Shown piece by piece: positions 9,302-61,380 of a stretch of 64,000 nucleotides of DNA. This DNA is from a virus. Taxonomy: Duplodnaviria; Caudoviricetes. The DNA lies in IMG/VR virus record IMGVR_UViG_3300023235_001725; one strand, 5' to 3'. The notes beneath the pieces are model-generated. The model saw only the letters and a program-made list of their open reading frames with translations, did no database searches and had not been told where the DNA came from. Position 1 is the first letter of the stretch; every line of letters starts with the position of its first letter. Both the position numbers and the translations under genes were made by a program.

Positions 9302-9469
9302 TTATAAAATCTTAACGAATTCTCTTTTGCCAACTTTGACAACCTGACCCGACTCTACTGGGCCGTTTTCAGTTACCGCACCTCCTTCCACCTGAACACC
9401 TCCTTCTGAAATCAATCTTCTTGCTGCTGAGTTGCTACAATCTCTGACTGCAACTACAGCTTGAATCAA
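9302..9469 (-). CDS. Small S4-like RNA-binding domain ORF (possibly frameshifted remnant)
   Basis: LIQAVVAVRDCSNSAARRLISEGGVQVEGG...VVKVGKREFVKIL resembles the TyrRS C-terminal S4 domain; only a TTG start; not in ORF track. Confidence 0.55.
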   Translation of the reverse strand: MIQAVVAVRDCSNSAARRLISEGGVQVEGGAVTENGPVESGQVVKVGKREFVKIL

Positions 9470-9659
9470 GTCTTTTGCTTCAATATTTTTAATAACAGCT
9501 GGGATTTCTTTCTTCTGAACCTGGTTCTATGACTTTAAAATCACTTACTGACTGTAGGTCAACCTTTCCTTTTCTACTCACAAGTTTTTAATTTACTATA
9601 AATAGACTACAAAAGTAACAAAGATTTCATAACTGTTACTTTTGTTTATGAAATCAAAG

Positions 9660-9750
9660 TGGAAGCGGAGGGGCTCGAACCCCCATTGTTTACCCAAAGG
9701 GACTAGATTTACAGTCTAGTGCGACACAACCGATAGTCGACCTCACTTCC
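9660..9750 (-). tRNA. tRNA-Tyr(GTA)
   Basis: Acceptor GGAAGTG/CGCTTCC, anticodon arm CTAGA-CTGTAAA-TCTAG, long variable arm, T-loop TTCGAGC. Confidence 0.9.
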
Positions 9751-9814
9751 ATAATAGTCATTTTTCACAACCCCTATTGAGGTTACTTCCGAAGAAAGTG
9801 GCATGACTGCCATG

Positions 9815-9904
9815 TGAGAGTGGAGGGACTCGAACCCCCAACGTTTACCCAGAGGGACCAGGGTTACAACCTGGCACAACACAACCGATAGTTGCCTCAC
9901 TCCC
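9815..9904 (-). tRNA. tRNA-Tyr(GTA)
   Basis: CCAGG-TTGTAAC-CCTGG anticodon arm, long variable arm, T-loop TTCGAGT. Confidence 0.88.
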
Positions 9905-10008
9905 ATTTAAAAATTGATTCCTCACCAACCAAGGACCAGCATGTCGCGAACAACTGGGCAGAGTAGAGGCCTTCTCTCTGCAACGGATTCGAACCGTTTT
10001 GGAATTTG

Positions 10009-10083
10009 TGGAGATGATGGGACTCGAACCCACATACGACGCTACGTGCAAGGCAGCCGCTCAGCCAATTGAGCTACATCCCC
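10009..10083 (-). tRNA. tRNA-Ala(TGC)
   Basis: GGGGATG acceptor with G3:U70, loop CTTGCAC. Confidence 0.9.
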
Positions 10084-10176
10084 ATTAGCAGGACATGTTC
10101 CCCAACGGCTTAACCTGATGAGGGGAATACCCACCAGACGCTCGTCGCATATCCTGTTTTCTTTAATCTTTTATTG

Positions 10177-10251
10177 TGGAGAAGATGGGAATTGAACCCA
10201 CGGTCTTCTGTCTGCCAGACAGATGCATTAGCCAGCACATGCTTCAACCCC
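10177..10251 (-). tRNA. tRNA-Ala(GGC)
   Basis: G3:U70, TCTGT-CTGGCAG-ACAGA; two acceptor-stem mismatches. Confidence 0.8.
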
Positions 10252-10260
10252 ATAAACAAT

Positions 10261-10372
10261 CAATCTCAGGGCGTCATCCCCAAGCCTTTAATGCGACGCT
10301 CAATGCGCCTACATCTCAGTGAGTCCTTTTTCGCTGACGAAGCGACTCGGCTACCTAAGGCACCTAAGATTG
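10261..10372 (-). ncRNA. Unassigned structured RNA between tRNAs
   Basis: 10-bp closing stem CAATCTTAGG/CCTGAGATTG around a GC-richer interior; no credible ORF. Confidence 0.4.
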
Positions 10373-10375
10373 AAT

Positions 10376-10451
10376 TGGCGGTGTGCATGGGAGTCGAACC
10401 CACAATCTCATCCGTGACAGGGACAAATGTTACCATCAACACCTCCACACC
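10376..10451 (-). tRNA. tRNA-Asp(GTC), CCA encoded
   Basis: GGTGTGG acceptor, G73, loop CTGTCAC. Confidence 0.88.
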
Positions 10452-10498
10452 GTGTCGTTTTTTTGTTTATTAAGGTCATAAGCGTAAATGACCAAGGG

Positions 10499-10572
10499 CG
10501 GTAGCGAAGGAATTCGAATCCTCAATCTCCTCCGTGACAGGGAGGCAACATGCGCCAATATGATGCGCCACC
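10499..10572 (-). tRNA. tRNA-Asp(GTC)
   Basis: GGTGGCG/CGCTACC, CTCC-CTGTCAC-GGAG; near-identical to 10808-10881. Confidence 0.88.
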
Positions 10573-10579
10573 ATTTTTT

Positions 10580-10642
10580 CAGGTAATTCTAAGAAGAGTG
10601 ATTTTATGTTCCTATAACGAAGTAACTCTTCTTTCAACACTG
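10580..10642 (-). ncRNA. Y-RNA-like small RNA
   Basis: CAG-TGTTGA-AAGAAGAGT-TACTTC...ACTCTTCTT-AGAATTAC-CTG; same architecture as 60697-60760 upstream of Ro60; degenerate half copies at 10669-10760. Confidence 0.6.
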
Positions 10643-10807
10643 AAAATTTTTAAATATGGTGGGGAGGGCAGGTCTTAATCTGCAATTATAGTTTATGATA
10701 CTAATTTTCGAAGTAACTCTTTCTATCAACACTGTTGCCAGGTAAAAAGCGAAAAAGTATTAATTATTCCTCCCCATAATAAATTGTGGTACTTTAATGC
10801 ACCAAAG

Positions 10808-10881
10808 CGGTGACGAAGGAATTCGAATCCTCAATCTCCTCCGTGACAGGGAGGCAACATGCGCCAATATGATGCGCCACC
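10808..10881 (-). tRNA. tRNA-Asp(GTC)
   Basis: GGTGGCG/CGTCACC, G73, loop CTGTCAC. Confidence 0.88.
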
Positions 10882-11034
10882 ATTTTCCCAAGATATTATG
10901 ACGATTACATCGGTGTAATATCTTGGGTTTTTTAATTAACTTTATTATCAATATGTCAAAGAACTCTTATTGTTTTCAAAAACTCCTACTCGTGTGGACA
11001 TTTACTAGAAACTCTTGTAAACTAACACTTTGTG

Positions 11035-11108
11035 TCGGGAGAGAGGGATTTGAACCCTCGACCTGAGCATCCCAAATGCCCCGTGCTACCTGACTGCACT
11101 TCCTCCCG
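11035..11108 (-). tRNA. tRNA-Pro(TGG)
   Basis: CGGGAGG acceptor, GGGCA-TTTGGGA-TGCTC, T-loop TTCAAAT. Confidence 0.9.
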
Positions 11109-11150: not shown

Positions 11151-11200
11151 AAACAAAAAAAACCCCCAGGTCATTCGTTTGATTGAATGACCTGGGGGTT
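11151..11200 (-). terminator. Attenuator terminator upstream of Pro/Asp/Ala/Tyr tRNA cluster
   Basis: 16-bp perfect stem AACCCCCAGGTCATTC/GAATGACCTGGGGGTT plus U-tract; competing copy GAATGACCTGG at 11252-11262. Confidence 0.85.
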
Positions 11201-11225
11201 TTCCCTAATGGTTTATGTCTCTACA

Positions 11226-11351
11226 TCAACTGTTGTTCAGTTTAGACATAACCAGGTCATTCTGCTTGCTCCCGCTATAATCGGGCGCACAGCCAGTCGC
11301 TGCCATCGGCATCGGTTGGTTTGAAATCGCTATGTCTGTAAAGTTGAACAT
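11226..11351 (-). promoter_or_regulatory. Leader peptide (41 aa) of tRNA-cluster attenuator 1
   Basis: MFNFTDIAISNQPMPMAATGCAPDYSGSKQNDLVMSKLNNS*; GCG CCC GAT TAT (A-P-D-Y) about 13 nt before the antiterminator. Confidence 0.75.
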
Positions 11352-12319: not shown

Positions 12320-13171
12320 TTACTTTTGGTTCATGTGTGGCTCACTAATCAACCATGCCGAATCGCTCTGAAACTTTGCGTTATTTATGTCGTCACCCAT
12401 TCTGGAAAGAAACTCCGACAGCAGTTTCTTTCCTGCTTTGGCATCTGCTTTAGCATCCGTCTTGAGCTTTGTGCTAAGCTTGCCTAGGAACTCCGATAAG
12501 GCATCATACCTTAAATTTCCAATGTCCTCTGCTAATTGTTCAGCAGAACCTTGAAATCTATCGATGTACTCTGGGTGTTGCTTTTGAAGCATTGCAGATG
12601 CGTGAGTGGCCCAGAACTTTTCTGACTCCAAAATGTACTCCTGCACGATGTCTTCTCCATTGCCTCCGAGCTCTTTGCCCATTGCGTTTCGAATCATTGT
12701 GGCTGGAGTCATTAGCTCTACGTCTGGATACATGTTTGCCTGGATGGCAACCACTCCAAAGTCAGATGCGACAGTTTCTCCAGTCTCAAAATCAGACTCT
12801 TCTTTCTCTAATTGCTCACGACTGTAAACGATAACAACCAAATGAGTGGCTGTGGGCAGTTTGTAGTTGTGTGGCAACAAAAGATTTTTAGACAGGAACG
12901 GAAGCTCTCCTTCTCGTCTAGCCTTCCAGGCGCAACGGAGATACTTCTGATTGTCTTGAGTTATTTCAACCGTGCCAGGCTTCGCAGTTGTGAAATTAGG
13001 AACGATGATGTACTTGCAAAAAGGATACAGAGAAGGTTTTACTGTGGCCTTACCTGAATCCAAAAGAGAGTTCACCTGTGTGGCGAACTCTTCTTTTGAT
13101 GTATCTATCTGCGTTCCACCGCCACCTTTAAAGTGGGCGTTCCCTGCAAAGTCTGTTACGTAGATTCTCAT
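12320..13171 (-). CDS. DUF3228-like protein
   Basis: PFCKYIIVPNFT, ARREGELPFL and VIVYSREQLEKE motifs; start overlaps clpB stop. Confidence 0.65.
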   Translation of the reverse strand: MRIYVTDFAGNAHFKGGGGTQIDTSKEEFATQVNSLLDSGKATVKPSLYPFCKYIIVPNFTTAKPGTVEITQDNQKYLRCAWKARREGELPFLSKNLLLPHNYKLPTATHLVVIVYSREQLEKEESDFETGETVASDFGVVAIQANMYPDVELMTPATMIRNAMGKELGGNGEDIVQEYILESEKFWATHASAMLQKQHPEYIDRFQGSAEQLAEDIGNLRYDALSEFLGKLSTKLKTDAKADAKAGKKLLSEFLSRMGDDINNAKFQSDSAWLISEPHMNQK

Positions 13172-15849
13172 GCTTCTACTTCTGTTTTTATTTCTTTCAC
13201 CTCTTTCTTAGGCTTCAAAGTCTTCTCGTTTTTGAAAGACAACTCTTCTCCTTTTCTTCCGATAAGGATTGGTGTTTTCTTCCCAACGTTACCGCCTAGA
13301 ATCTCAAAACTCAATGGCTCACGGACAAGTTCCGTAATCGCTCTTTTAACTGGTCTCGCTCCAAACTGTGGGTCGTAGCCTTTTATTCCAAGCAACTCCA
13401 CTGCCTCTGCGGTCCAGTTCAACTCGTACTCTTCCTCTTCCATGTTCTTTCTGAAAGATTTGAGTTGCAATTCAACAATCTGGTTAATTGCGGTTTGGTC
13501 GAGCGGGTTGAAAATAACAACCTCGTCAAGTCGGTTAAGAAGCTCAGGGCGCATTGTTTGCTTGAGTTCTTCCATAACGTCCTCGTTGATTGCTTTGACA
13601 AGCTCTGGCGTTATTACGTTTCCTGAATCCTCGAATTCATCTTGGATAACTCTGGACCCAATGTTTGAAGTCATGATGATGATGGTGTTCTTAAAGTTCA
13701 CCAATCGTCCTTTGTTGTCTGTTAGACGTCCATCGTCTAGAACCTGCAGAAGCACGTTCAACACATCTGGGTGAGCCTTCTCAATCTCGTCCAACAACAC
13801 AACATTGTATGGGCGCTTTCGGACTGGCTCCGTCAATTGACCTCCTTCGTCATATCCAATATACCCTGGAGGCGAACCTACAAGTCGAGAAACAGTGTGC
13901 TTCTCTTGGTACTCAGACATGTCAATTCGAATCATGTGAGTTTCGTCATCAAATAGGTACTCAGCAAGCGCTTTTGCCAACTCTGTTTTTCCAACTCCCG
14001 TTGTTCCCAAGAATAGAAATGAACCAATAGGCTTCTTTGGGTCACCAATACCTGGGACACGATTCACTCGGATTGACTTCGCAACTTCTGATACAGCCTC
14101 TATTTGTCCGATAACTCGCTTTTGCAATTCATCTTCAATGTAAAGAAGTTTCTCATTATCACTCTTTGTCATTTTCGAGACTGGAATTCCAGTCCAAGCC
14201 GAAACAACTTCTGCAATCTCTAACTCAGTCACAACTTCTTTTAGAAGCTTGTGGTGAGATTGAATCTCAATCAGTTTCTCTCTAGCTACTGCTTGTTGCT
14301 TTTCGTTCTCTGGCAACTCACCGTGAAGGAGCTTTGCAGCTCCTTCAAGGTCTGAGTTCTTTGTGAACTGCTCCGCCTGGAAAGACAATTCTTCTTGGGC
14401 TCGCTTGAGTTCTTGAATCTCGTCAATGTACTTCTTTTCACGAAGCCACTTCGCATTCAAATCTTCTTGCGTCTCAATTAGCTCAGACAATTTGTCGAGC
14501 ATCTCTCGCTTGCGCTTCTCAGATGCATTTGAATCTGAGCCCATTGCTGCGAGCTCAATTCGAATTTGTGTGATTTCTCTGTCAACTTCATCCAGCACTT
14601 CTGGCTTGGAGTTAATCTCCAAACGAATTTTAGATGCAGCTTCATCAATCAGGTCGATTGCTTTGTCTGGAAGGTTTCTATCGGTAATGTATCTGTCCGA
14701 CATCTTCACTGCCGCAATCAAGGCATCATCTGAAAACTGAACCTTGTGAAAGTTTTCATACCTACTTTGAAGACCGCGTAATATTGCAACTGTTGTTCCA
14801 GGAGTTGGTTCTTCGACCATTACTTTTTGAAATCTACGCTCCAAAGCTGAATCTTTCTCGATGTGTTTCTGGTACTCGTTCAGAGTTGTTGCTCCAACCG
14901 TTGCCATTTCTCCACGAGCCAAAGCGGGCTTCAAAAGCTCTCCTGCACTCAAAGCTCCACCACCTGAACCTGCGTCCAAGATTGTGTGAATCTCGTCAAT
15001 GAACAAAATGAACTCTTTGTTAGAGTCCTCAACTTCTTTGATAACACCTTTAAGACGTTGTTCAAATTCTCCTTTAAATGAAGCCCCTGCAATTAGAGAA
15101 GCCATGTCAAGAGAGAACAAAGTGCACCCTTTCATATTGACTGGGACATCTCCGCTAAATATTCTTTGTGCCAATCCTTCAACAATAGCTGTTTTACCAA
15201 CTCCTGCCTCTCCAATCAAAATTGGATTGTTCTTGGTGCGTTTTGAAAGGATGTGAAGGGCACGACGCATTTCCGTGTCTCGCCCAATAACTGGGTCAAG
15301 CTTGTTTTGCTCCGCACGTTCGTTTAAGTTGACGGCGTATGCATCCAAGTTGGGAGTTTTGCTTTCTCCTCCTTCTGCGATGAATTCATTCTCACCTTGA
15401 ATATCTTCAAGCGCTGAATCGAGGTGCTTCTCTTCGATATCCATCGAGATAAGTACATTTGTGGCAGTGGAGTTCACACGGAAAAATGCTCGAAGCAAGT
15501 GTTTTGGTTGGCAGAGTTGTTCTCCACCTTGTTCGTTTTCTCCAAACCCAATTGCTATTACCAGAAGTTGATTCATCACCTCAGACATCTCTGGACGACC
15601 TTCGTACTGAACAACTTTGGTGTTCTCTAAGAAAGTCTTTGACAACGTGTTCATCTCTTCGATGGTATATGTCTTACCGCTGTCTTCGTTTACTTTATCT
15701 AGGATAATTGCAACCAAATTATCTTGTTCAACCAGTATAGCACGTAAAACGTGTATTGGCTCAACTTGTTTGTGAGAGAATGACATTGCTTGACGCTGTG
15801 CTCTTGCAAGCGTATCATGTGCCCCTGGGGAAAATTGTTCGTTATTCAA
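13168..15849 (-). CDS. clpB: Chaperone ClpB
   Basis: 893 aa; Clp-[16 protein letters not shown], coiled-coil middle domain, [19 protein letters not shown]. Confidence 0.96.
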
Positions 15850-18851: not shown

Positions 18852-19694
18852 TTACTCCATCGACATCATGATATCATAAACTAGGTTATAAACGTCGTAG
18901 AATTTCTTTGACTGTTTAATCTCTACTGGTCGTTCATATCCTATTTCAGCTGTGACATCAATTTTTTTCACAAACTTAGCAGGAGCGTTCCCCATGACAT
19001 AGATTTCATCCGCCAAATAAACAGCTTCGCGGATGTCGTGCGTAATAAAAAGGATTGTCGGTTTGTATTCATAAAATAGGTTTAACGTCAGTTGTTGCAT
19101 CTGGTTACGAGTCTTAACATCAAGGGCTCCAAACGGCTCATCCATTAACATGATGCTTGGGTTCGCCAAGATGCTTCGGGCAATTGCAACACGCTGAAGT
19201 TGACCACCACTCAAAAGCGGATACTGAGCAAATTTGTTTTCATGACCTTTAAGTCCAACCTTTTCAATAATCTCCAAAGCCTGCCTGTTTCGTTCAGCTT
19301 TGCTTAAATAGGTTTCGCTTGATTTGCCAAGCCTTTCTTTTACGAACCGCAACGGGCTCTCCATGAAAGCATTATTTCGATACTCCAATCCCAGTTGAAC
19401 ATTTCTCAACACAGAATACCAGTCGTATGAACTATACTTTTGAAAAACTTGTCCAACTTTATTTGACTTGTCTTGTGCTGGCTTTCCGTTCACCATTACA
19501 GTTCCAGAGGTAGGAATATCTAGTCCCGATATGAATCGTAGAAGTGTACTCTTTCCGCAACCAGATGGTCCCAGGATAACAATCAGGTTTCCTTTTTCTT
19601 TTTTAGGAACGACCAAATCCAGATTCTCAATGATTTTGACCTCGCCGCTGTCGTATGACTTGCACACGTTTCTTAGTTCTAAGATATTGCTCAT
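18852..19694 (-). CDS. ABC transporter ATP-binding subunit (NitT/TauT type)
   Basis: [32 protein letters not shown]. Confidence 0.95.
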
Positions 19695-20524
19695 TTGTTA
19701 GATTTGTTTTGATGCTTCCAAGGGAATATTTTTCTATCAATTAGAGTTAGAATTTTATCCTGAAGGAATCCAATTAAGAAAATAACAAACAACACCGCGA
19801 ATACACTTGCGTATTCGCTCTGTCGAGCCATTTGCCAACACAGCACTCCAACTCCGCCTTGCGCTGAATTAATGTTCTCAGCAATGATGATGTAGGTCCA
19901 TGAAATTGCTGTAAGATTGATGATATCCGTAAATACCAGCCCTAAGCCTTTTGGCAAATAGATTGTTTTAAATATTTCCCACTCAGAAGCATTAAGTGTT
20001 CTAGCTGTGTTCTCATACATTTTTTTGACTTCGTCTACTCTAGCAATCATCGCAGGAAGCAAGTAAACAATTATGCCACATGCAAGAAATTGAATCTTCA
20101 TTGTCTCTCCGATTCCAAACCAGATAATAAAGAGAGCAATCAATGCCGCAATTGGTAAGTAACGAGCAGACTGGATGTACTTTTCAAAAATTGCTCTTAT
20201 AGGTGATTTAAGAGCGATTAAGAAGCCTAATGGGATAGCGATGATTGCGGCCTCAAGAAACCCTAAAAAGTTCCTTACAAGACTTTTCTCGATGTGTTCC
20301 AATAAGCCTTTCTGTCTTGTTGCTTCAGGGTCAATAAGTCCGTCAAATGCGCCTAGCACATCTAGCGGCTTTGGAAGAATTTGTTCTGGTATTCCACCGA
20401 ACTCAGTTAGTAGGTACCATCCTGCTAATATTACAAGCAACCCTAAGAATCCTATGAAGGTTTTCTCTCGCTTTGTCAACTGAGCCTTTATCTTCCAGAT
20501 GTGTTTTGTAGTGAATATTTTCAT
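19691..20524 (-). CDS. ABC transporter permease (NitT/TauT type)
   Basis: Multi-TM; [11 protein letters not shown]-like [16 protein letters not shown]. Confidence 0.92.
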
Positions 20525-20611
20525 GGTGTGACTGGATATAAAAAGGGCGCAGTTCTGGTGTTTCTACTCAGCCTCTGCGCCCTTTGCAGTTTGTTTATGA
20601 ACTATTTTCCC

Positions 20612-22308: not shown

Positions 22309-23010
22309 TTATTTTAGTATTATTTTCGTAAAGTTCTCAAAATCTGTTTCAAAATATTTTTCTTCAAAATCATATCTTGAAGGGGATATGGGCAAATAAA
22401 ACCTAATTGCTCCTTCTTTTGATTTCATAACAGGAAAAGTGAATTCGGCTGAATATTCACTTTTCTCTCTTGCCAGTTCTGTTTGAATTAAATCAAGAAA
22501 TTTTGTTTCATCATATTTATCATATTTTGAACCGATACTTACCCAATATTGAGTTTTTAATTCTACAAGACTCTCAATATTCAATAATTTTTGATATTCT
22601 GCTTTGGTATAAATGTATCCAATTGTTTGTTTAAATTTATACCAATCTCGGTAGATATTAGGATATTCGAATCGTCCATTCCACTTGTCTACTATTAGAA
22701 CATAATATGTAGTTCCTTTATAAGTAGTTGTTCTTGTTTGCACTTTTTGAAAGTTTTGGCCTCTACTCGACATCATATGCGGACCTTGCAACGATTTGTA
22801 TTTAACCTTATAATCCTTGTTGTCTGAAATTACGTTTTCATAATCTATCCATTCACCAAGCGTAGAGTTGTTAGCCCATCCTGTTGCTTTTAAAAGAGTT
22901 CCCGATGTTGTTTCAAAACTTATTTTTTCTCTATTTGTTCGTTCTTGTCCAAATATTTGTACAGTGAAAACTGTCAATAAAAGTGCGATAAGTGTTAATT
23001 TAAATTTCAT
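22309..23010 (-). CDS. Secreted hypothetical protein
   Basis: Signal peptide MKFKLTLIALLLTVFTVQIFG; more AT-rich than neighbours. Confidence 0.75.
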   Translation of the reverse strand: MKFKLTLIALLLTVFTVQIFGQERTNREKISFETTSGTLLKATGWANNSTLGEWIDYENVISDNKDYKVKYKSLQGPHMMSSRGQNFQKVQTRTTTYKGTTYYVLIVDKWNGRFEYPNIYRDWYKFKQTIGYIYTKAEYQKLLNIESLVELKTQYWVSIGSKYDKYDETKFLDLIQTELAREKSEYSAEFTFPVMKSKEGAIRFYLPISPSRYDFEEKYFETDFENFTKIILK

Positions 23011-23212
23011 TTTTCTATTTTTTATTCTTACTCGTTTGGCTTTTCAGTTTTCGCCCCGTTTTTAAAATGGTTGCTGGTCTCCACTTTTTTATTTTTTATC
23101 AAAACTGTTCTTCAAGATTATTCAAAATATTTTTTCAATTCTCTTTTCAGTCTACGATGTCGTTTCTTAAACTTGCCCATAATATACGTGCATGAACGGT
23201 AAAGGTTTCGAT

Positions 23213-27821: not shown

Positions 27822-27823
27822 GA

Positions 27824-51761: not shown

Positions 51762-52451
51762 TTAAAAAACTCTCTGTGTTAGTCTCTCAAATCCGTCCTT
51801 CCATGTTTCGTGTTTATCAAATCTTTCACCACAACCAGTGGTTCCACCTTTCCAGCTTCCTCTTCTCTTTCCTACTTCTGAAGAGAATTCAACGTCAATT
51901 GTACGACTCACTTGGCTGAACATAGTTGTTCGTTTGAACCATCTCATTCTCCATTCTCTCTCCGAGATGGATATATCGGCATTAACCACGTTCAGTTCTC
52001 CATTTGGAGTGTGCTTATCAACATACGGCATATTAGTTCTCCACATTTTCTCTTTCCATTCGTCTTTATAAAAGTCTTGTTTGTCGCCTTTTATTGAATG
52101 AACCCATGTTCCATCCTTCAGTTTAATGCTGTGGCGAACGTGGTCGAGATTCCAGGGCATATTAATGTATTTAGATTTCTTTCCGTAACGAATAACAAAG
52201 CTCTGACTCTGCCAACCATCCTGATACCAATAACAGCCGTACTGTTCTGAGTCGCCGTAATCCTTTCTCTTGTGTGACCAGGGCATACTCCAAAACAGGC
52301 TCCAGAATAGGAATGCTATATGGATTTGGGGTCTCTCATCATCAGAATACCCGTGGCACTCGTAAGTTAAGTGAAAAGCAACTGGTTTTCCCCAGCTGTA
52401 TCTATAAAATGATATATTATCGTTTTCAAACTTCTTTGTGGGGTTTCGCAT
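51762..52451 (-). CDS. Hypothetical phage protein
   Basis: 229 aa; VEFSSEVGKRRGSWKGGTTGCG. Confidence 0.75.
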   Translation of the reverse strand: MRNPTKKFENDNISFYRYSWGKPVAFHLTYECHGYSDDERPQIHIAFLFWSLFWSMPWSHKRKDYGDSEQYGCYWYQDGWQSQSFVIRYGKKSKYINMPWNLDHVRHSIKLKDGTWVHSIKGDKQDFYKDEWKEKMWRTNMPYVDKHTPNGELNVVNADISISEREWRMRWFKRTTMFSQVSRTIDVEFSSEVGKRRGSWKGGTTGCGERFDKHETWKDGFERLTQRVF

Positions 52452-52523
52452 TCTACAAATGTAATCAATTTTACAAATATAAAAACTGTTCGAAGGGCGG
52501 CCTTTTTCTATCTGTAATTCAAG

Positions 52524-52595
52524 AGGGGCGTAGGGGGTTCGAACCCCTGACGTACAGGGTTAAAGCCTGATGTTCTACCTCTGAACTAACGCCCC
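52524..52595 (-). tRNA. Putative ochre suppressor tRNA (anticodon TTA)
   Basis: GGGGCGT/ACGCCCC acceptor, U73, CAGG-CTTTAAC-CCTG with canonical 7-nt loop, T-loop TTCGAAC. Confidence 0.8.
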
Positions 52596-52789
52596 TTGTG
52601 GTAATGTGCTATCCGATACAGCCAGTCTCCACAATACGGTGAAGATAGAATATCTTTCTTAGCCTGCATAACTCTTCGTAACGAGGAATATGGACCAGAG
52701 TATTTGGTCCAAGCCACCCTGGGGCGATGCTTAGCTGTATAGTTTGAAGTCCATTCTATATAATATCTCGTGTTATCTACAGTAGCCAT
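52586..52789 (-). CDS. Hypothetical protein
   Basis: 67-aa ORF; last codons overlap the tRNA 5' end. Confidence 0.5.
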   Translation of the reverse strand: MATVDNTRYYIEWTSNYTAKHRPRVAWTKYSGPYSSLRRVMQAKKDILSSPYCGDWLYRIAHYHKGR

Positions 52790-52808
52790 AGCATTAAAAT
52801 AGTGGTTA

Positions 52809-53540
52809 CTAACTAGGTTTTGAAGTTATCAACCATTCTTTTAATGTCATGAATTCTTTCACCTTACCTGGGACAGAATTTTCTAGTTTGGCTAACTTTA
52901 TGTTGATTTTATCTTTGTTTTTTCTATCATAGATGTAGTCTATTATGCCTGGATTCTCTTTAAAGTACCATATCGCATATTCTAGTGTTCTCTCTATTTC
53001 TTCATCAATGGTTTTTGATTCATCAATATGCGTCAATACAATGGTTGGAAAATAAGAGCAGCATGGAATGGCGTCATTGCAGTTTGTTGACATATGTATA
53101 CCATACTTTGATTTCTCTGGACTTTCTAACTCGAATATTTCCACGGACAAAGATTCTCCGATACTGTACAAGGATTTCATCCACGAAGGATTTCTTTCTG
53201 GATTAAACTCTGTGTCTTTTACAATGTAAGTCTGTTTTGATATTTTGCTTGCCATTTCTTGCGCTGATTCTTCTTTAGCATTTAATTGGTCTATTTTTTT
53301 AAACACATCTCCATACTCAGAGAAGATTAAATCTGTTTTTTCACAAAACTCATCTATTATATCAAAGAAGTTTGATGCCATTGGGCTCATGTAGTACATC
53401 AGTACAAAGTTGTAAGACATTCTGTCTCCATTCCAGTATTGGACTTCAAAACTAATTTCACCACCCAACTCGGTGCCAAAATTAATATCCACACACTCAA
53501 ACTTGTCATTATAATCCATTACTTTTTTAAACCAATCCAT
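52809..53540 (-). CDS. Hypothetical protein
   Basis: Likely start MDWFKK; long acidic ORF. Confidence 0.7.
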   Translation of the reverse strand: MDWFKKVMDYNDKFECVDINFGTELGGEISFEVQYWNGDRMSYNFVLMYYMSPMASNFFDIIDEFCEKTDLIFSEYGDVFKKIDQLNAKEESAQEMASKISKQTYIVKDTEFNPERNPSWMKSLYSIGESLSVEIFELESPEKSKYGIHMSTNCNDAIPCCSYFPTIVLTHIDESKTIDEEIERTLEYAIWYFKENPGIIDYIYDRKNKDKINIKLAKLENSVPGKVKEFMTLKEWLITSKPS

Positions 53541-53554
53541 TATTTTTTTTGTTT

Positions 53555-53971
53555 TTAATCCTCGCAAGGCAAGTGACCATATTTATGAAAATACTTTAAT
53601 GGACGTTTCAATTTTCCATTAATCCAAAAACCCCATTTTCGTCGTGGCTTAAACGCTAATACAAATGTCCAGCAAGACACATCTTTAGGAAGCACTACAT
53701 TATGTATATGTTCTGCTTTTCTAAAGCGAATGCTTCCTTGTCTTAACTTATCGATTCCATTTGGGCTTATGTCTAAATAGCCTCCTTTCAGTATGAAAGT
53801 GATAAAATCCCAAGCATGGTCATGCTGGTGCGCGATTGGTTCACTTCTTATGAAGTTGTGAACTCGGAACGAAAATAAGTAGAAATTGAACACCCATCTG
53901 TAAGCATACGGGCAACTTTTTTCACCTAAAGCTTCGTTCCATCTGAACTGAATTGGTCTGAACTTTTTCAT
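53555..53971 (-). CDS. Cupin-like phage protein
   Basis: HQHDHAWDFITFILKGGYL, HIHNV, KWGFW. Confidence 0.7.
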   Translation of the reverse strand: MKKFRPIQFRWNEALGEKSCPYAYRWVFNFYLFSFRVHNFIRSEPIAHQHDHAWDFITFILKGGYLDISPNGIDKLRQGSIRFRKAEHIHNVVLPKDVSCWTFVLAFKPRRKWGFWINGKLKRPLKYFHKYGHLPCED

Positions 53972-54090
53972 TTCTTGATTCGGATTATAGCTGAGGGTAC
54001 AGTTTTGTAATCCTCAACAAATGAATAATCTGGGACCATTGTCACGGAGTAGTTCTTATCTTGAAGCCACTCACGGAATTCTTTGTGCAG

Positions 54091-54480
54091 TTAAGTCTCT
54101 CCAACCATCCAAAAAGGAGATGTTAAGCTTGAGATTGTTCCGCCTGGTGCAAGTTGGTCATACATGTGCATGATGTGTTTGCAATCGACATTGTCTCGAA
54201 AGTTAGGACAGGCAATGACGTAATCATATGGTGTCTGGGCTTCGAATCGGAAGAAGTCTGAGCCAACCAACTCATATTCTTTTTCTTTCAGTGTGACTCG
54301 GCATTCTTGATTAAGTTCTACACAGTCAATTTTACACTGTTGGAATTTTTCTTGAACCCCGTCCGCCAATACTCCTGTGCCTGCAGATGGTTCTAGTATT
54401 CTCGCTCCAGGCTTCGGGTTTAATCTCTCACATAAAGCATCAATCACCACTTGGGGTGTAATTCTGTTTGTCTCTACCAT
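54091..54480 (-). CDS. Short class I SAM-dependent methyltransferase-like protein
   Basis: ILEPSAGTG, DCVELN, DF; CPNF in place of NPPF. Confidence 0.7.
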   Translation of the reverse strand: MVETNRITPQVVIDALCERLNPKPGARILEPSAGTGVLADGVQEKFQQCKIDCVELNQECRVTLKEKEYELVGSDFFRFEAQTPYDYVIACPNFRDNVDCKHIMHMYDQLAPGGTISSLTSPFWMVGET

Positions 54481-54502
54481 AGCTTTCGTTTTTTTTATTG
54501 TT

Positions 54503-54593
54503 TGGTGAACGGAATAGGAATCGAACCTACAACTTTTCTTATGGCCGCTAAGCCATCTAGTTTTGCGCCTTCCATCCTTTTAAGTACTCGTTC
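54503..54593 (-). ncRNA. Degenerate tRNA-like RNA, CCA encoded
   Basis: Acceptor GAACGAG/TCCGTTC-A-CCA and T-arm GTAGG-TTCGATT-CCTAT; no canonical anticodon arm. Confidence 0.55.
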
Positions 54594-54634
54594 GAACATT
54601 TCCTTAAAAATCTTGGTGCAATCCGCCCATGTTG

Positions 54635-54686
54635 TGGCGTGGGGAGAAACGAATCTCACGCGAATCTTCTTTCAGATTCTCACGCC
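54635..54686 (-). ncRNA. Mini-tRNA type A
   Basis: GGCGTG acceptor, one hairpin GAATCT..AGATTC, T-like arm GAGA-TTCGTT-TCTC. Confidence 0.65.
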
Positions 54687-54746
54687 ATGTGGGGGAAGTT
54701 GTTTATGAGAACAGCGCCTCCCCAAGCATCTCACTGCTCATTATAA

Positions 54747-54913
54747 TGGTCCCGCGAGAGGGTTCTGCCCCCCATCATTTCTTCAACATCAACTACTAAC
54801 TCACTCTTGTGGCCACGCAAGTGAGTTTTTGTGTTTGCATCCCGAACTGAGTCCTTTCGGTTCGTCTTCCACATTATCAGTGTGGTGCTTTAACATATCT
54901 AAGCTATCGCAGG
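54747..54913 (-). ncRNA. tRNA-Ile(GAT)-like RNA with about 90-nt insertion in variable region, CCA encoded
   Basis: CCTGCGA/TCGCGGG acceptor, CCACA-CTGATAA-TGTGG, insert with TTGCGTGGCCACAAG hairpin, degenerate T-loop. Confidence 0.65.
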
Positions 54914-54919
54914 AAATTG

Positions 54920-55062
54920 TCCTGGAGGAAGGGCTCGAACCCCCGACCCCCACCGTTCGATTCCAATTCTCTACTTCACAACCCTTGTGGCCACGCAGGT
55001 TGCGTTTCAATCCTTTTCCTCATTTATCAGGGTGGTGCTCTAACCAACTGAGCTACTCCAGG
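54920..55062 (-). ncRNA. tRNA-Ile(GAT) with about 70-nt insertion in the anticodon loop
   Basis: CCTGGAG/CTCCAGG, canonical D and T arms, CCACC-CTGATAA-[insert]-GGTGG; insert contains CTGCGTGGCCACAAG. Confidence 0.7.
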
Positions 55063-55065
55063 AAG

Positions 55066-55111
55066 TGCCGCTAACAGGAATCTCACCTATTCTAGTGCTA
55101 ATGCAAGCGGC
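55066..55111 (-). ncRNA. Mini-tRNA type B
   Basis: GCCGCT/AGCGGC stem, connector GCATTAGCACTAG, T-like arm TAGG-TGAGATT-CCTG. Confidence 0.6.
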
Positions 55112-55112
55112 G

Positions 55113-55192
55113 TGGTGGTGAGGGAAGGACTTGAACCTTCGACCTCCAGGGTTTTAAAGCCTGGTGCTCTGAACCAACTGAGCTACCTCACC
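55113..55192 (-). tRNA. Non-canonical tRNA with 9-nt anticodon loop (CTTTAAAAC), CCA encoded
   Basis: GGTGAGG/CCTCACC, canonical D/T arms, CCAGG-CTTTAAAAC-CCTGG. Confidence 0.7.
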
Positions 55193-55195
55193 AAG

Positions 55196-55241
55196 AGGCC
55201 CCAGGAAGACTTTCTCTTCCTCTAGTGCTAATGCAGGGGCC
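55196..55241 (-). ncRNA. Mini-tRNA type B
   Basis: GGCCCC/GGGGCC stem, connector GCATTAGCACTAGA, arm GGAAG-AGAAAGT-CTTCC. Confidence 0.6.
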
Positions 55242-55242
55242 G

Positions 55243-55296
55243 TGGTGGCGTGGGAAGAAACGAATCTCCCGCGAATCCCTAATGGACTCTCACGCC
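55243..55296 (-). ncRNA. Mini-tRNA type A, CCA encoded
   Basis: GGCGTG/CACGCC-A-CCA, hairpin GAGTCC-ATTA-GGGATTC, T-like arm GGAGA-TTCGTT-TCTTC. Confidence 0.68.
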
Positions 55297-55332
55297 TTTT
55301 TTAAATTCCAACACGTCAATGAACTTTTGTTG

Positions 55333-55406
55333 TGACAGGAGAAAGATTCGAACTCTCGTCCCCAGGTTTTTAAGGCCTGGTGCTCTAACCGCTGAGCTAT
55401 CCCGTC
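55333..55406 (-). tRNA. Non-canonical tRNA with 9-nt anticodon loop (CCTTAAAAA)
   Basis: GACGGGA/TCCTGTC, CCAGG-CCTTAAAAA-CCTGG, T-loop TTCGAAT. Confidence 0.7.
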
Positions 55407-55455
55407 TGGTGGCGGATTCAGGACTTTAACCTGAACTGGTGCTTATGCATCCGCC
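55407..55455 (-). ncRNA. Mini-tRNA type B, CCA encoded
   Basis: GGCGGAT/ATCCGCC-A-CCA, connector GCATAAGCACCAGT, arm TCAGG-TTAAAGT-CCTGA. Confidence 0.68.
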
Positions 55456-55459
55456 GTAG

Positions 55460-55506
55460 TGGTGCGGGGACAATCGAATGTCCCATGAGCCAAAAGCTCT
55501 CGCACC
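55460..55506 (-). ncRNA. Mini-tRNA type A
   Basis: GGTGCG/CGCACC-A, hairpin GAGC-TTTT-GGCTC, T-like arm GGACA-TTCGAT-TGTCC. Confidence 0.65.
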
Positions 55507-55527
55507 GTGATATGGAAACCTGCATCA

Positions 55528-55947
55528 TCATGCGGCTTCTTTACAATTACAACTCTTGAGAGTTGGTTGATTCGTAAATTCTTTGAAAGCAAGTGGTAGA
55601 CTAGATAACCAACGGGCAGATTCTTTCCCTGGTTCTACGGTAATAGACGTGAACTGGTTGTCGAGGTCAGGCTCCTGGAAGGAACTGAAATTAATACCTT
55701 TTTGCGTGAGTTTGTCTCGGAGCTCGATGAGTTCTTGCTCGTCTTTGACTGATAAGAATCCTAAATATGGATTCGATAACCATTTTTCATAAATGGCTGT
55801 GTATTCTTGATTGAATACGTGGAATGAATGCATTCCTTGAGTTGCCTGCGCTCCAGGAGCGAGGTCTCGTCTTACGACGATGTAAAGCTTTAAGTTTTTC
55901 TTCTCTGTAGAAGGGTGTACTTACTGGTTGTCTAATGCTTTTTTCAT
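55528..55947 (-). CDS. Pth2-like peptidyl-tRNA hydrolase with in-frame TAA at codon 9
   Basis: MKKALDNQ*VHPSTEKKNLKLYIVVRRDLAPGAQATQGMH...LSVKDEQEL...FQEPDL; no ATG/GTG/TTG between TAA (55921-55923) and the YIVVRRDL motif. Confidence 0.7.
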
Positions 55948-56306
55948 GACTCTTATTTTTTGTTTGTTTCTGAACCTACTTCTTCAACTTCCGTGCCATC
56001 TGATATTAGATGTCATTTTGTCAGGCTGTAGAGTTGGCTCTCAATACAATCTACGACAAAGATATAAAAAAGTTTCACTTATTTCAATCTTTTTTTGAAA
56101 ATAAATCATCCGACAGCCCTGAGAAGTCCATTCCCTTTGTGTTTTCAGAGATTTCATCATTACTCTCAAATTCTGTATTTATTGCAACTCCTCTTCTTTT
56201 TTTATACTCGGAACGGACTCTTTTCGTCAGTGTTGTCTGCTCCTAGTCCGCTAACAAGTACCTGACAAAGGAAGCTGCAATACTGGCAGCAATGCGTCTT
56301 TGTTTT

Positions 56307-58547: not shown

Positions 58548-58891
58548 ATTTTTCTACTAAGCGTTTTTTCCCAATCCGACTGGGCTTTTTTACGCTCCAC
58601 TAAGAAGTTGGCGCTAACTTCTTTTTCTTTACATTCAGTTAAAAAAGCATCCTCTATTGAAAGGTCAAACCTAAACCATTCTCTCCAATGATGATTGGCG
58701 GTTTTTGAAATATGCATCAACTGCTCAACCTCTTTGTAATTACAAGTGCTATAGTAGTTTATTAGATGAAGTTGGGTTGGGTTTCCAGTTTGAAGTTCTC
58801 CTAGCCTGGCTTTAGGGTGGTTAGATGTGTGTCCTATTTTATATAGGTCCGTATCTCCTTGTCGCACTAGATAAACATATCCTTTTCTCAT
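58544..58891 (-). CDS. GIY-YIG (T5orf172-like) domain protein
   Basis: Start MRKGYVYLV; YKIGHT, RLGELQTGNP, EWF. Confidence 0.85.
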   Translation of the reverse strand: MRKGYVYLVRQGDTDLYKIGHTSNHPKARLGELQTGNPTQLHLINYYSTCNYKEVEQLMHISKTANHHWREWFRFDLSIEDAFLTECKEKEVSANFLVERKKAQSDWEKTLSRKI

Positions 58892-59062
58892 AAAGAAGAA
58901 TACTCTACATCGATGTAAAAGTAAAGAAAACCCTGCCAAAATTAATCGACAGGGTTTTCTAAAAGCTTTTAATCCTTGTGTGACCTAAGTGATTGGCATC
59001 CACCCGTAGGTGAACCGATGTGTTTTTCGGGGATACACGTTTGCCACAAGTACTATTATCCC

Positions 59063-60583
59063 TTATTCCTTAGTTGCAAGCTCAGCAAAATCAACATAAT
59101 TGTTGATAGTGTTGATAAGCGCTCTTTTGTCGACTTCTAGATTGTCAATGACATCAAAAATCTTTTCAGAGAATCCTCTTAGCGCGAATACGTTCTTCTC
59201 TGGGAACTGCATGCTTCCGCTTGCAGCCAAGTTGAACTCGTAAACTTTACAGTCCTGAGCACCGTACTTCTTCTTGTACGCTGCAAACTGAGTTTTTGGA
59301 GTATTGTACTCCATCCACGCTTGCATGTCCGAGAAGATGAATACACGGTCGTATTTCGCCTTCATCTTAACGAAGATGTCTTGGAAGTTCGTTCCGTGAC
59401 CAACCCTGTACTTGCCAACGTTGCCGTAGCCTTGGTTTGTATCAACAATCCAGTTTGCCATACCCATTACTGAGTCATTCACGTTAACTGGAAGGTACAT
59501 TGCGTGTGTTCCAAACGACATTACATCAGCATCACTAGCCTTGGCCATCATGGCTCCAAATAGAGCTGCCACTTTATTCCTGTAAGTTTTACCTCCAGCA
59601 ATTGGGCAATCCATAGAACCTGACAGGTCAATTACGACTGCAGTGTTTCCATCAAACTTTGGAATGTTAGAACAAGCTAGGTCTACGGCGGTGTTAAGCG
59701 CTCTTTGAACTTTCTTAGACTTTGTTCCAGTCAACACTGTAATCTCGTCGAGTGCAGTGATGTATCTGAATGGAAGAATCAGTGACTTCTTAATTCTTGC
59801 CTCTGTAGTCAACAGCTCGCATGCCTTGTTAAGAACCTCGTCAGAAGCATCTTGGATGATGTTTCTAAGGTTTCTTAGAAGAGCAAACTGTCCAATCTTA
59901 CCTGACATAACCAAGTCAGACCAAGCCTCAGCTTTGTTTGCGGCTTTCTCCTCAGAGGTCTTCGCTCCCTGGCCAGCTGCGGACAGCTTAGACTCGAAAG
60001 TGTTTTCACTCTTTAGGGTTCCAGCAACAAGCTCGGCAAGTGCCTTCTCGTTTCTAGCCGTTCCTTTTGGACGAACCAAGTTTACAACGTCAACAAGCGA
60101 TACTTCATTCTTGTCTCCTCTGTACTTGGCAAGCTGGTATGCATCGAACTTTCCGAAAGCTTTCTTGAAACCTTTCTTTAGCGCGTTTGGCAAAGATGCT
60201 TTCTTACCCTCTCTACCGAAGTAGTAGGACATAATCTCAGTCATGTCGTCTGGACGACGTACAATAGCTGCGTAAAACTCTTTAGCCCAGGCCTTACCTG
60301 AGGCGTGCTTAGCGATTTCACCCGCAAGTACGTGGGTGATAGAACGCATTCCAAACTCGTTACGGGCATAGACAGCCGCCTTTGCTGCGAACTCTGGGTC
60401 CACTTTGCTAAGAACGGATGTCAACTCCTTTATTTGGTCTCCTGCCTTCGAATAGAAGTCATCAGACACAAACGAGTTCAACAGAATCGTCACAAGCTCT
60501 AACTCTGGAGTCGACTTATAAGCCTCTCCTCCCGCTTTGTTGGTAGTCATTTCTACCTTTGATTTTTCGTTAAATTTTGACAT
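59063..60583 (-). CDS. TROVE-domain Ro60-like RNA-binding protein
   Basis: Start MSKFNEK; NKAGGEAY, ARNEFGMRS, FDAYQLAKYR, ALLRNLRN, vWA DLSGSM, FSDMQ, GFSEKIF. Confidence 0.95.
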   Translation of the reverse strand: MSKFNEKSKVEMTTNKAGGEAYKSTPELELVTILLNSFVSDDFYSKAGDQIKELTSVLSKVDPEFAAKAAVYARNEFGMRSITHVLAGEIAKHASGKAWAKEFYAAIVRRPDDMTEIMSYYFGREGKKASLPNALKKGFKKAFGKFDAYQLAKYRGDKNEVSLVDVVNLVRPKGTARNEKALAELVAGTLKSENTFESKLSAAGQGAKTSEEKAANKAEAWSDLVMSGKIGQFALLRNLRNIIQDASDEVLNKACELLTTEARIKKSLILPFRYITALDEITVLTGTKSKKVQRALNTAVDLACSNIPKFDGNTAVVIDLSGSMDCPIAGGKTYRNKVAALFGAMMAKASDADVMSFGTHAMYLPVNVNDSVMGMANWIVDTNQGYGNVGKYRVGHGTNFQDIFVKMKAKYDRVFIFSDMQAWMEYNTPKTQFAAYKKKYGAQDCKVYEFNLAASGSMQFPEKNVFALRGFSEKIFDVIDNLEVDKRALINTINNYVDFAELATKE

Positions 60584-60635
60584 CTCGTCGTTGTTTATAA
60601 TTGTTGTTATTCTATTAATTCTTTGTTTTTGGCGC

Positions 60636-60675
60636 ATAAAAAAAAAGCACCACATCTTTGCAGAGGGTGCTTTTT
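60636..60675 (-). terminator. Terminator-like hairpin between Y-like RNAs and the TROVE start
   Basis: AAAAAGCACC...GGTGCTTTTT with U-run on minus strand. Confidence 0.55.
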
Positions 60676-60696
60676 CGAAAAATATAATGCCTTGGT

Positions 60697-60760
60697 CGGG
60701 TAATCCTGGAGAGAGTGGTTTTTCTATTTGTAGTTGAAGTAACTCATCTCCTTAACACCG
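60697..60760 (-). ncRNA. Y-RNA-like small RNA
   Basis: CGG-TGTTAA-GGAGATGAGT-TACTTC...ACTCTCTCC-AGGATTAC-CCG; covarying with 10580-10642. Confidence 0.65.
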
Positions 60761-60778
60761 TAAGGCAAATAACTGTTC

Positions 60779-61041
60779 GAGGTAAAATAGAGGGGGGTGA
60801 TAAGGTTGAAAGTTCTTTCTCTTTCGGTCATACGGTCTACCGTAATCGTGATTGTACTGTTCCAATCCGTCACCAGCTCATTAATGGCTGAAAATCCAAG
60901 TCTATCCTTGGTGTCTGGGTTTCTGTTTATGGTCTTTTCGAAACGGTCTTTCGACTATTCCAAAAAAGCCTGTTTGCTTGTTTGTTTATAGTTGAAGTAA
61001 CCCCTAGGAAACGTCAAAAACGTTCACACCTCTCAACACTC
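60779..61041 (-). ncRNA. Long Y-RNA-like RNA
   Basis: GAG-TGTTGA-GAGGTGTG...CACCCCCCTCT-ATTTTAC-CTC terminal bulged stem enclosing about 220 nt incl. GGTTACTTC. Confidence 0.5.
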
Positions 61042-61380
61042 TGAAAGTCGTAAACTCTTGGTATATTTTGGAAAAAAATTGTTAAATGTGGAAATGAAGT
61101 AACTCTCTTTACCATTCTTACCTTAAGTTGTATTTCAATATGGCAATCGGAACCGTTGTTCCTACCAGTGAAATTAAATAGGGACAAATTTTAGAAACTC
61201 GTCTCTCGTTCAATCGCTCTGCAAATATAATTATGTTTTTGGAAACCACAAGCATAATTGCAAAAAAAATATACTTTTCTTATAACTATCTGACTATTAG
61301 GGTTAAAAGATTACAGCGGTGGAATAATTTATGAGTCTTTAGATATTATCGTTATAGATTCATATTTATAGAAAAGAAAA

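Follow-up and report, generated by a model that had tools for sequence, protein, structure and literature searches.

A huge-phage accessory region probably built from separately inherited modules for translation and RNA upkeep

The 64,000-nucleotide stretch of viral DNA analysed here (the window; IMG/VR record IMGVR_UViG_3300023235_001725, Caudoviricetes) carries transfer RNA (tRNA) clusters with putative attenuators, a Pth2-family hydrolase gene with an early in-frame stop, a suppressor tRNA, an RNA ligase and a Ro60 gene with Y-like RNAs. The span is probably the accessory region of a Mahaphage-like huge phage of salt lakes, and it probably holds at least three independently inherited modules for translation and RNA upkeep, not one system. 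The initial annotation had joined these parts into a single distributed programme that detects and reverses defence-induced shutdown of host translation. Nearly all of the parts it listed are present in the window, the 2H phosphoesterase and the alarmone hydrolase as probable assignments only. Judged from the sequence, elements that could sense and respond are present and conserved.

The nearest relatives by protein are two uncultured phage genomes, LR745206 (W01; 635 kb), which shares Ro60 with the window at 50% identity, and LR756501 (W02; 735 kb), which shares the RNA ligase at 40% identity. These two complete genomes were scored for presence of the parts, and IMG/VR contigs supplied further relatives. 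Only the attenuated tRNA clusters and the early-stop Pth2-like gene are common to the window and both genomes. Among the complete relatives, a matching suppressor tRNA is found in LR756501 only, as are a good Rnl5 homolog, there inside the tRNA zone, and a weak HD_4 match. Ro60 is found in LR745206 only, and the 2H-like protein, the ribosomal RNA (rRNA) look-alike and the mini-tRNAs are in neither. The full set of parts thus does not travel together. Within the window they are scattered across 52 kb, with unrelated cargo between them (ClpB, an ABC transporter, type I CRISPR-Cas with an array, RmlC, Dam and Acb3). Patchy parts separated by such cargo fit modules that were gained and lost independently. 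The regulatory links between parts are the putative leader attenuators upstream of tRNA clusters, one of which also includes Y-like RNA; in addition, suppressor anticodon and in-frame Pth2-like stop covary over the 32 loci compared.

A single co-regulated programme, sensing and reversing translation shutdown caused by anticodon nucleases, PARIS or Cas13 through replacement, repair and decoys, is quite unlikely. The window does hold reshaped tRNAs, a ligase and sensors, and a Y-like RNA lies under the first attenuator, but the parts fail to co-occur in the complete relatives and are scattered among unrelated cargo. Published experimental work shows that phage tRNAs with altered anticodon loops escape anticodon nucleases and that the effectors of PARIS and retrons can be neutralised by phage tRNAs (PMC10264068, PMC11464382, PMC11555353); jumbo-phage tRNAs, RNA ligases, 2H proteins, TROVE proteins and an HD-alarmone hydrolase have been read as counter-defence (PMC7824862). 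No link of any part to a defence-specific trigger is visible in the window. Of the proposed sense-and-rescue integration, two conserved sensor modules therefore stand, while the joint inheritance of the set does not. The separate modules would serve the long infection of a very large phage, and countering tRNA-cleaving defences is a possible benefit of them.

The first module comprises putative self-regulating tRNA operons, each with a leader open reading frame (ORF), an intrinsic terminator and a copy of a terminator arm within the ORF. The leader ORFs, terminators and arm copies of the two candidate attenuators of the window were found as previously described. Attenuator 1 (11154-11351, minus strand) has a 41-codon leader ORF (11351-11226) containing A-P-D-Y, followed by a terminator at about 11205-11154 of 16-22 bp and -35.3 kcal/mol. 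The ORF includes GAATGACCTGG, a copy of the terminator 3' arm, and this 11-nt match is equalled in 0 of 2000 shuffles. Attenuator 1 precedes tRNA cluster 1 (9661-11108, minus strand), in which ARAGORN and Rfam together identify Pro(UGG), three Asp-type, Ala(UGC), Ala(GGC) and two Tyr(GUA) tRNAs. Attenuator 2 (34218-34358, minus strand) has a 27-codon leader (34358-34275) with nine Trp, Ser or Arg codons in a row, and a terminator at about 34253-34218 (-21.6 kcal/mol); CCTAGGGC in this ORF is able to pair with the terminator 5' arm. The downstream cluster 2 (32583-34202, minus strand; ARAGORN and Rfam) encodes Ser, Arg and Trp tRNAs, namely two Trp(CCA)-type, Arg(UCU), Ser(GGA), Ser(GCU) and two Ser(UGA), the anticodons of the last two being read directly from the sequence.

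Similar leaders precede tRNA clusters in both complete relatives and in IMG/VR contigs. In LR745206, an Asp/Pro/Gln cluster is preceded by a leader with PQPQDQDP, a Phe/His/Lys/Arg/Ser/Trp cluster by one with HKNFSKSHKWFS, and a 19-tRNA cluster by one with MTTMNLNMTMNLTLNVVNITL. The leader of the five-Leu cluster in LR756501 is MNNILHINLLNSLCLLGIKLIG, that of its Phe/His/Lys/Ser/Trp cluster includes SKHSKHFSSSSKWF, and that of its Met/Gln cluster includes NMIQEQMQQIQ, with more Met, Ile(UAU) and Glu tRNAs lying beyond this last cluster. The cognate-residue score, summed over 22 tRNA clusters from the window, both relatives and IMG/VR contigs, is 107. The corresponding nulls are 70.8 ± 5.3 for random sets and 75.1 ± 5.2 for permuted sets, with a maximum of 93 (2000 trials each), and this permutation test rules out chance as the source of the leader/tRNA matches. 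The hairpins that follow the leaders range from -12 to -35 kcal/mol, and U-tracts accompany them in seven of the eight cases folded.

These arrangements suggest a stall-dependent switch in the leaders. When cognate charged tRNAs are scarce, a ribosome would stall at the listed codons, and the arm copy could then pair with the terminator 5' arm, allowing transcription to continue into the tRNA genes and, in cluster 1, also into the Y-like RNA. With plentiful tRNAs the ribosome would mask the arm copy, and transcription would end. Such attenuators would answer any lack of charged cognate tRNA, whatever its cause. Our literature search turned up no previous account of phage tRNA operons governed by leader peptides.

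The window has about 22 tRNA or tRNA-like genes, many of unusual shape. ARAGORN reports 15 tRNAs, and Rfam adds six tRNA-like genes (10499-10572, 10808-10881, 32583-32667, 33998-34084, 34118-34202 and 54920-55062). A GIY-YIG ORF (32907-33731; Pfam) lies inside cluster 2, and a second Arg(UCU) tRNA (31446-31518) lies beyond the ligase gene from this cluster. The reshaped tRNAs that had been described are present. The tRNA-Arg(CCU) gene (30212-30296, minus strand; ARAGORN and Rfam) is 85 nt long with a long variable arm, the Arg(CCU) and Trp(CCA) tRNAs measure 84-85 nt, and the Trp(CCA)-type genes also have long arms. Two tRNAs have 9-nt anticodon loops (55113-55192 and 55332-55406). The latter pair belongs to an array (54635-55506, minus strand; from sequence, ARAGORN and Rfam) that also includes mini-tRNA-like elements of types A and B and two insert-bearing tRNA-Ile(GAU) genes. 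The two Ile(GAU) genes (54747-55062, minus strand) have inserts of 70-90 nt, which are too short for group I introns, and share a common hairpin capped by TGCGTGGCCACAAG. The type B mini elements occur in three copies with a common 14-nt linker and differing, fully paired stems. Two related contigs (L109 and L110) keep them, and the third copy shows compensatory changes there, in line with their earlier description.

The second module is a putative read-through system, in which conserved in-frame stops match the anticodon of a neighbouring suppressor tRNA. The Pth2-family hydrolase gene (55528-55947, minus strand) starts with ATG and seven codons, followed by an in-frame TAA at codon 9 (55921-55923), which gives M-K-K-A-L-D-N-Q-TAA and then a conserved block. 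There is no ATG, GTG or TTG between the TAA and this block. As a single sequence the protein falls under the Pfam cut-off (19.1 versus 23 bits), but a profile of 18 homologs matches Pth2 structures in the PDB (2zv3 at 3.6e-10, 1rzw, 1wn2, 1q7s, 1rlk and 1xty), the best four of which cover nearly the whole domain. On this profile we assign the gene family to Pth2. An E-P-D near the catalytic Asp region is invariant in the family.

A single-sequence IMG/VR search with the Pth2-like protein returned nothing, and the homologs came from an alignment query. Altogether 32 loci were compared: the window, both complete relatives and 29 IMG/VR contigs of up to 508 kb (L079-L107). Of these, 26 have the gated layout, in which an ATG and two or three more codons (seven in the window) lead directly to a stop in frame and an alternative start is lacking. 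The early stop is TAG in 25 of these 26, the window alone having TAA. In 18 of the 25 TAG-gated loci, a tRNA(CUA) is encoded on the same strand no more than 6 kb away, as it is in 22 of the 31 loci other than the window (LR756501 and 21 IMG/VR loci). The Pth2-like module of LR756501 occupies 688150-690738, and a second in-frame TAG lies deeper in its Pth2-like gene (about codon 35); several contigs also have a second, deeper TAG. The TAG-gated gene with one or two tRNA(CUA) genes a few kb away is a widespread module of huge-phage contigs. In LR745206 (336111-338511), YqeY/GatB-like and Asp/Asn-tRNA synthetase-like genes, recognised by eye from their N-termini, precede the Pth2-like gene, which is located 4 kb before an 11-tRNA cluster.

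The TAA of the window is matched by an ochre suppressor tRNA (52523-52595, minus strand; ARAGORN, Rfam 66.2 bits) with anticodon UUA and a canonical cloverleaf, 3.3 kb downstream of the Pth2-like gene. The early in-frame stop and the suppressor tRNA are thus as described at the outset. Orthology of this tRNA to the CUA suppressors was considered and is not demonstrable, the identities of 49-67% being in the range of unrelated tRNAs of the window.

A second candidate for read-through, in the same operon, is a small amino-methyltransferase gene (53974-54480, minus strand; motifs EPSAGTG and ACPNF), in which codon 130 of 169 is an in-frame TAA (54091-54093). Alignments with longer homologs (172-175 aa) span the TAA and show conservation of the 39 codons beyond it. 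In seven close relatives the protein is called as 129 aa, whereas its length is 172-190 aa in more distant homologs. Read-through of the TAA appears to be needed for the conserved C-terminal 39 residues. This TAA is kept in three relatives from other samples (L108-L110), two of which (L109 and L110) also keep the Pth2-like TAA and both 9-nt-loop tRNAs. Both stops are unchanged in contigs of four runs.

General recoding was considered for both stop codons and rejected. In the window TAA is the most used stop, closing 31 of 53 long minus-strand ORFs. Coding-like sequence flanks only three minus-strand TAAs on either side; two of them separate ordinary in-frame neighbouring genes and the third is in the methyltransferase, which reduces the read-through candidates in the window to the Pth2-like and methyltransferase genes. 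For TAG, reciprocal tblastn between the two complete relatives (about 94,000 aligned residues) shows no other credible in-frame TAG, and reading TAG as sense increases ORF coverage no more than for other stops. The tblastn result, the coverage test and the use of TAA as main stop together argue that there is no genome-wide recoding.

Given the conserved stops, the aligned homologs and the matching suppressor, read-through by the suppressor tRNA is the simplest reading. Output of full-length Pth2-like protein and methyltransferase would then track the efficiency of suppression, and the module would tie peptidyl-tRNA recycling to the period of stop-codon read-through. The Pth2-like protein may recycle peptidyl-tRNA arising from read-through, or may act on the suppressor itself. 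Our search of the literature found no paper linking Pth2 to suppressor tRNAs.

The third module would be a cargo of RNA repair and quality-control genes, namely the Rnl5 ligase, the 2H-like protein, Ro60 with its Y-like RNAs and the HD_4 hydrolase, with a composition that differs from phage to phage. Ro60 (59063-60655, minus strand) has TROVE and von Willebrand factor A domains (PF05731 at 1.1e-25, PF25045 at 5.2e-08). Motif and fold define three Y-like units bearing GTTACTTC in its leader (60690-61125, minus strand), consistent with the earlier pairing of Ro60 with Y-like RNAs. The motif thus has three copies upstream of Ro60, and two more are found in tRNA cluster 1, where two Y-like units (10580-10760, minus strand; motif at 10619 and 10710) carry GAGTTACTTC in a bulged hairpin. 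The cluster 1 fold consists of a closing stem, an internal loop and a 9-bp stem; the shorter units share an architecture in which a closing stem is joined by internal loops, of 6 nt on the 5' side and 8 nt on the 3' side, to a stem that runs up to the motif.

GTTACTTC is also upstream of Ro60 homologs in two other contigs (L008 and L009). Each of these has one unit with tRNA-like T and D arms, and the motif opens their sub-threshold YrlA matches (31 bits against a gathering score of 69). The Y-like units of the window have no tRNA-like domain and no YrlA match in Rfam even at E 10, and neither the Ro60 leader nor 30355-30745 matches a Y RNA, RNase P or any other Rfam family. In LR745206, Ro60 is preceded by a variant of the motif, and two Y-like units lie within tRNA clusters. 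LR756501 has neither Ro60 nor a Y-like unit in its tRNA clusters.

The RNA ligase (31538-32557, minus strand) has an N-terminal OB domain and a nucleotidyltransferase domain (PF21189, PHA02142 OB; PF09414, RNA_ligase). It is an Rnl5-family enzyme resembling NgrRnl (PDB 5cot at E 3.7e-69), as had been supposed of an RNA ligase here, and has homologs in 345 phage records. Rnl5 (NgrRnl) seals 3'-OH/5'-P nicks and is not known to seal raw anticodon-nuclease ends. No polynucleotide kinase (Pnkp), Rnl1 or RtcB was found among the about 70 window ORFs scanned, and both points count further against one programme that reverses tRNA cleavage.

The putative 2H protein (27824-28945, minus strand) has two domains. 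The N-terminal domain is ParB-like by eye (EGRHRAIAA) and recurs in polyvalent proteins, and homologs share mostly this N-terminal half. The C-terminal third is a probable 2H-like domain: its 130 residues contain two HxT motifs (HMTV and HITL), and residues 241-373 match tRNA_lig_CPD clusters structurally in the Atlas at a template modelling (TM) score of 0.76, some of these clusters being joined to kinase or HAD domains. The phosphoesterase of the initial annotation is most likely this domain; the support is thin, with LigT_PEase matching at E 0.15.

The ligase and the 2H-like protein could instead rejoin the exons of the phage's own insert-bearing tRNA-Ile(GAU) by healing and sealing, as in fungal and plant tRNA splicing, and would then not be a response to attack. 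The tRNA at 54920-55062 (Rfam 49.9 bits) has an insertion of about 70 nt 3' of the anticodon, and the best structural neighbours of the 2H-like domain are the tRNA_lig_CPD clusters just described. The insert of the other Ile(GAU) gene is placed in the variable region. This explanation is rather unlikely, since the ligase lies 22 kb away from the insert-bearing tRNAs and neither a splicing endonuclease nor a kinase was identified. We prefer to regard both proteins as part of the exchangeable RNA repair cargo.

The HD protein (25596-26213, minus strand) is probably of HD_4 type, similar to the RelA/SpoT hydrolase, and is a candidate alarmone hydrolase. It matches PHROG 990 at 3.7e-11 and has the HDxxED motif as FHDMIED. 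In the Atlas its feature score is 0.93-0.94 and its TM score 0.68-0.77 to HD_4/RelA-SpoT clusters, with 70-71% of neighbours being HD_4. The alarmone hydrolase that had been proposed is most likely this protein; there is no Pfam match for it, and PDB matches to Rel/SpoT are weak (best E 0.17).

A free-standing look-alike of 23S rRNA helices 43-44 (H43-H44), part of the GTPase-associated centre, lies at 30754-30861 (minus strand) and corresponds to positions 1085-1152 of the Rfam LSU_rRNA_bacteria model. The rRNA mimic claimed earlier has near-identical cores of 18 nt and 14 nt, separated by a 43-nt insertion, and scores weakly against the model (13.2 bits, with E 0.085 for the 601 nt searched). 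Nothing similar is found in either complete relative. A short ORF in LR756501 (L002 14470-14610), which resembles the bL12 C-terminal domain by eye, adjoins a tRNA cluster there and may bear on the look-alike in the window.

Several observations weigh against the proposed leaders, read-through and enzyme assignments. The arm copy stands clear of shuffles in just two of the seven leaders tested, with 11 nt in attenuator 1 and 9 nt in an LR756501 leader (equalled in 1 of 2000 shuffles). The other copies are 6-7 nt and not above shuffles, and their positions are consistent (codons 19-22). A convincing leader is missing at several tRNA clusters. The GKGK loop of solved Pth2 enzymes is replaced by P-G-(Y/A)-Q in the Pth2-like family, and its substrate may therefore differ. 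LR745206 has the early TAG, yet ARAGORN finds no tRNA(CUA) there, and the codon 3' of the early stop is mostly ATT or GTT, which would allow for restart at some of the loci. The assignments of a 2H domain and of an alarmone hydrolase are weak.

Tiny upstream ORFs with restart at ATT, the codon immediately after the early stop at 11 of 23 distinct loci, might account for the gated layout; more generally, the in-frame stops and leader matches could be artefacts of pseudogenes, assembly errors or chance, as the clusters with no convincing leader might indicate. Such explanations are very improbable. The stop position is conserved over the 26 gated loci and in three close relatives from other samples, and in six loci, one of them that of the window, the next codon after the stop is GTT or GTA. 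The deep internal stops, at about codon 35 in LR756501 and at codon 130 in the methyltransferase, cannot be restarts, and the permutation test excludes chance for the leader matches. Attenuation and read-through are thus retained as the preferred readings of the leaders and the in-frame stops.

If leaders and gated gene are taken together, a closed-loop control of decoding in huge phages may be envisaged, though we advance this only tentatively. The leaders would sense tRNA shortage codon by codon and switch on those same tRNA genes, the early stop would make the Pth2 gene a reporter of suppressor activity, and the lineage of the window would have moved the device from UAG to UAA. If true, this would be the first ribosome-mediated attenuation of tRNA genes, and phage tRNA genes would be expressed on demand. 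On-demand tRNAs bear on the question of why phages carry tRNAs, for which codon compensation, replacement after host shut-off and escape from anticodon nucleases come into consideration. The link between the early-stop Pth2 gene and the suppressor would be a natural gene-specific stop-codon suppression in standard-code genomes and may show an early or minimal stage of code change, and the module of the window would include a rare natural case of UAA read-through.

Almost all genes of the window are on the minus strand. A megablast of 24 kb against GenBank phages gave no match, and there is no near-identical phage there. The Mahaphage clade has genomes larger than 634 kb and predicted Bacteroidetes hosts (PMC7162821); the sizes of LR745206 and LR756501 agree with this, their accessions not being confirmed in that paper. 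The stretch 52400-56100 is present in many salt-lake metagenome DNA runs of 2017-2019. Over 3.7 kb, contigs of four such runs differ solely by a T>C at 52761, which points to a very uniform population across these years.

A Bacteroidota-type -7 box, TAnnTTTG, occurs on the minus strand at 11422, 34469, 56064, 61229, 32552, 18711 and 58944, where it closely precedes the two tRNA leaders, the Ro60 leader, the Pth2 operon and a number of genes. The boxes are compatible with transcription by a Bacteroidota host polymerase. As a signal of co-regulation the box was rejected: its window-wide count of 36 on the minus strand and 33 on the plus strand has no strand bias and is not evidence for co-regulation.

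Other features of the window include two ClpB-type disaggregase genes (13168-15849 and 62934-63998, minus strand), the second of which is cut by the window end. Neighbouring genes encode an AAA ATPase, a DUF3228 protein and an ABC transporter whose binding protein is fused to OmpA (18852-22228); LR756501 also has homologs of this transporter. Most ORFs in 22309-30192 have no match in Pfam or PHROGs. A DUF805 RNA motif (23021-23089, minus strand; Rfam 78.5 bits) is directly upstream of a 233-aa ORF (22309-23010) with no Pfam match. The region 34561-41834 comprises a CRISPR array region, then Cas6, two unassigned ORFs and Cas3 (HD and helicase); the scanned ORFs of the window include neither cas1 nor cas2. 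A homolog of Acb3, an inhibitor of the cyclic-oligonucleotide-based antiphage signalling system (CBASS), is encoded directly downstream of the suppressor tRNA (51762-52451, minus strand; PF25187 at 7e-34).

Phage T4 repairs PrrC-cleaved tRNA-Lys with Pnkp and Rnl1. Like T4, the window combines a phage RNA ligase with a tRNA-rich genome and a possible enzyme for processing 2',3'-cyclic phosphates. Unlike T4, its ligase is of the NgrRnl-like Rnl5 family instead of Rnl1, and the scanned ORFs include no polynucleotide kinase-phosphatase.

Ro60 accompanied by Y RNAs is established for both bacteria and phages, the bacterial form being Rsr with YrlA and YrlB (Chen et al. 2014, PMC4201824). The likeness lies in a TROVE gene beside small structured RNAs, and in the two contigs outside the window the RNA also has tRNA-like arms. 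Unlike YrlA, the units of the window lack both a tRNA-like domain and an Rfam match, and extra copies lie inside tRNA operons.

The repertoire as a whole has been described for jumbo phages, with many tRNAs, ATP-dependent RNA ligases, 2H phosphoesterases, TROVE/Ro proteins with a tRNA-like partner and an HD-alarmone phosphodiesterase, and was read by Iyer et al. (2021) as an answer to host attack on the translation apparatus (PMC7824862). The same kinds of parts are found in the window. That study reports patchy distributions and not one programme; it includes no leader-peptide control of tRNA genes and no suppressor tRNAs, and peptidyl-tRNA appears in its reference list only (PMC7824862). Al-Shayeb et al. 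(2020) proposed that phage tRNAs, synthetases, factors and ribosomal proteins redirect translation (PMC7162821); their text has no sensing or feedback elements, and the terms suppressor and peptidyl are absent from it. The counter-defence and translation-takeover reading of such gene sets is thus already published (PMC7824862, PMC7162821), and what the present analysis would add to this umbrella idea is the control logic. The leader attenuators and the suppressor-gated Pth2 appear to be new variants of two known principles, attenuation and suppressor-dependent expression.

The trp, his and pheA operons are controlled by ribosome-mediated transcription attenuation through leader peptides. The pheL leader peptide is described in PMC3082878. 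The window shares with these operons a short leader ORF in which regulatory codons follow one another and, after it, an intrinsic terminator, and it may also share a pairing that competes with the terminator. In the amino-acid operons biosynthetic enzymes are controlled, whereas here the tRNAs themselves would be, the genes are encoded by a phage and the leaders list several amino acids, in keeping with a mixed tRNA cluster.

The closest published concept for the second module is the stop-codon recoding that Borges et al. proposed as a timing device, in which a phage suppressor tRNA permits translation of genes with in-frame stops; 26-71% of genes are recoded (clade means), with TAG or TGA only (bioRxiv 10.1101/2021.08.26.457843). 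In contrast to those phages, one or two genes here have the stop, at a conserved early codon, and the code is otherwise standard. The codon used in the window is TAA, which is at the same time the main stop of its genome.

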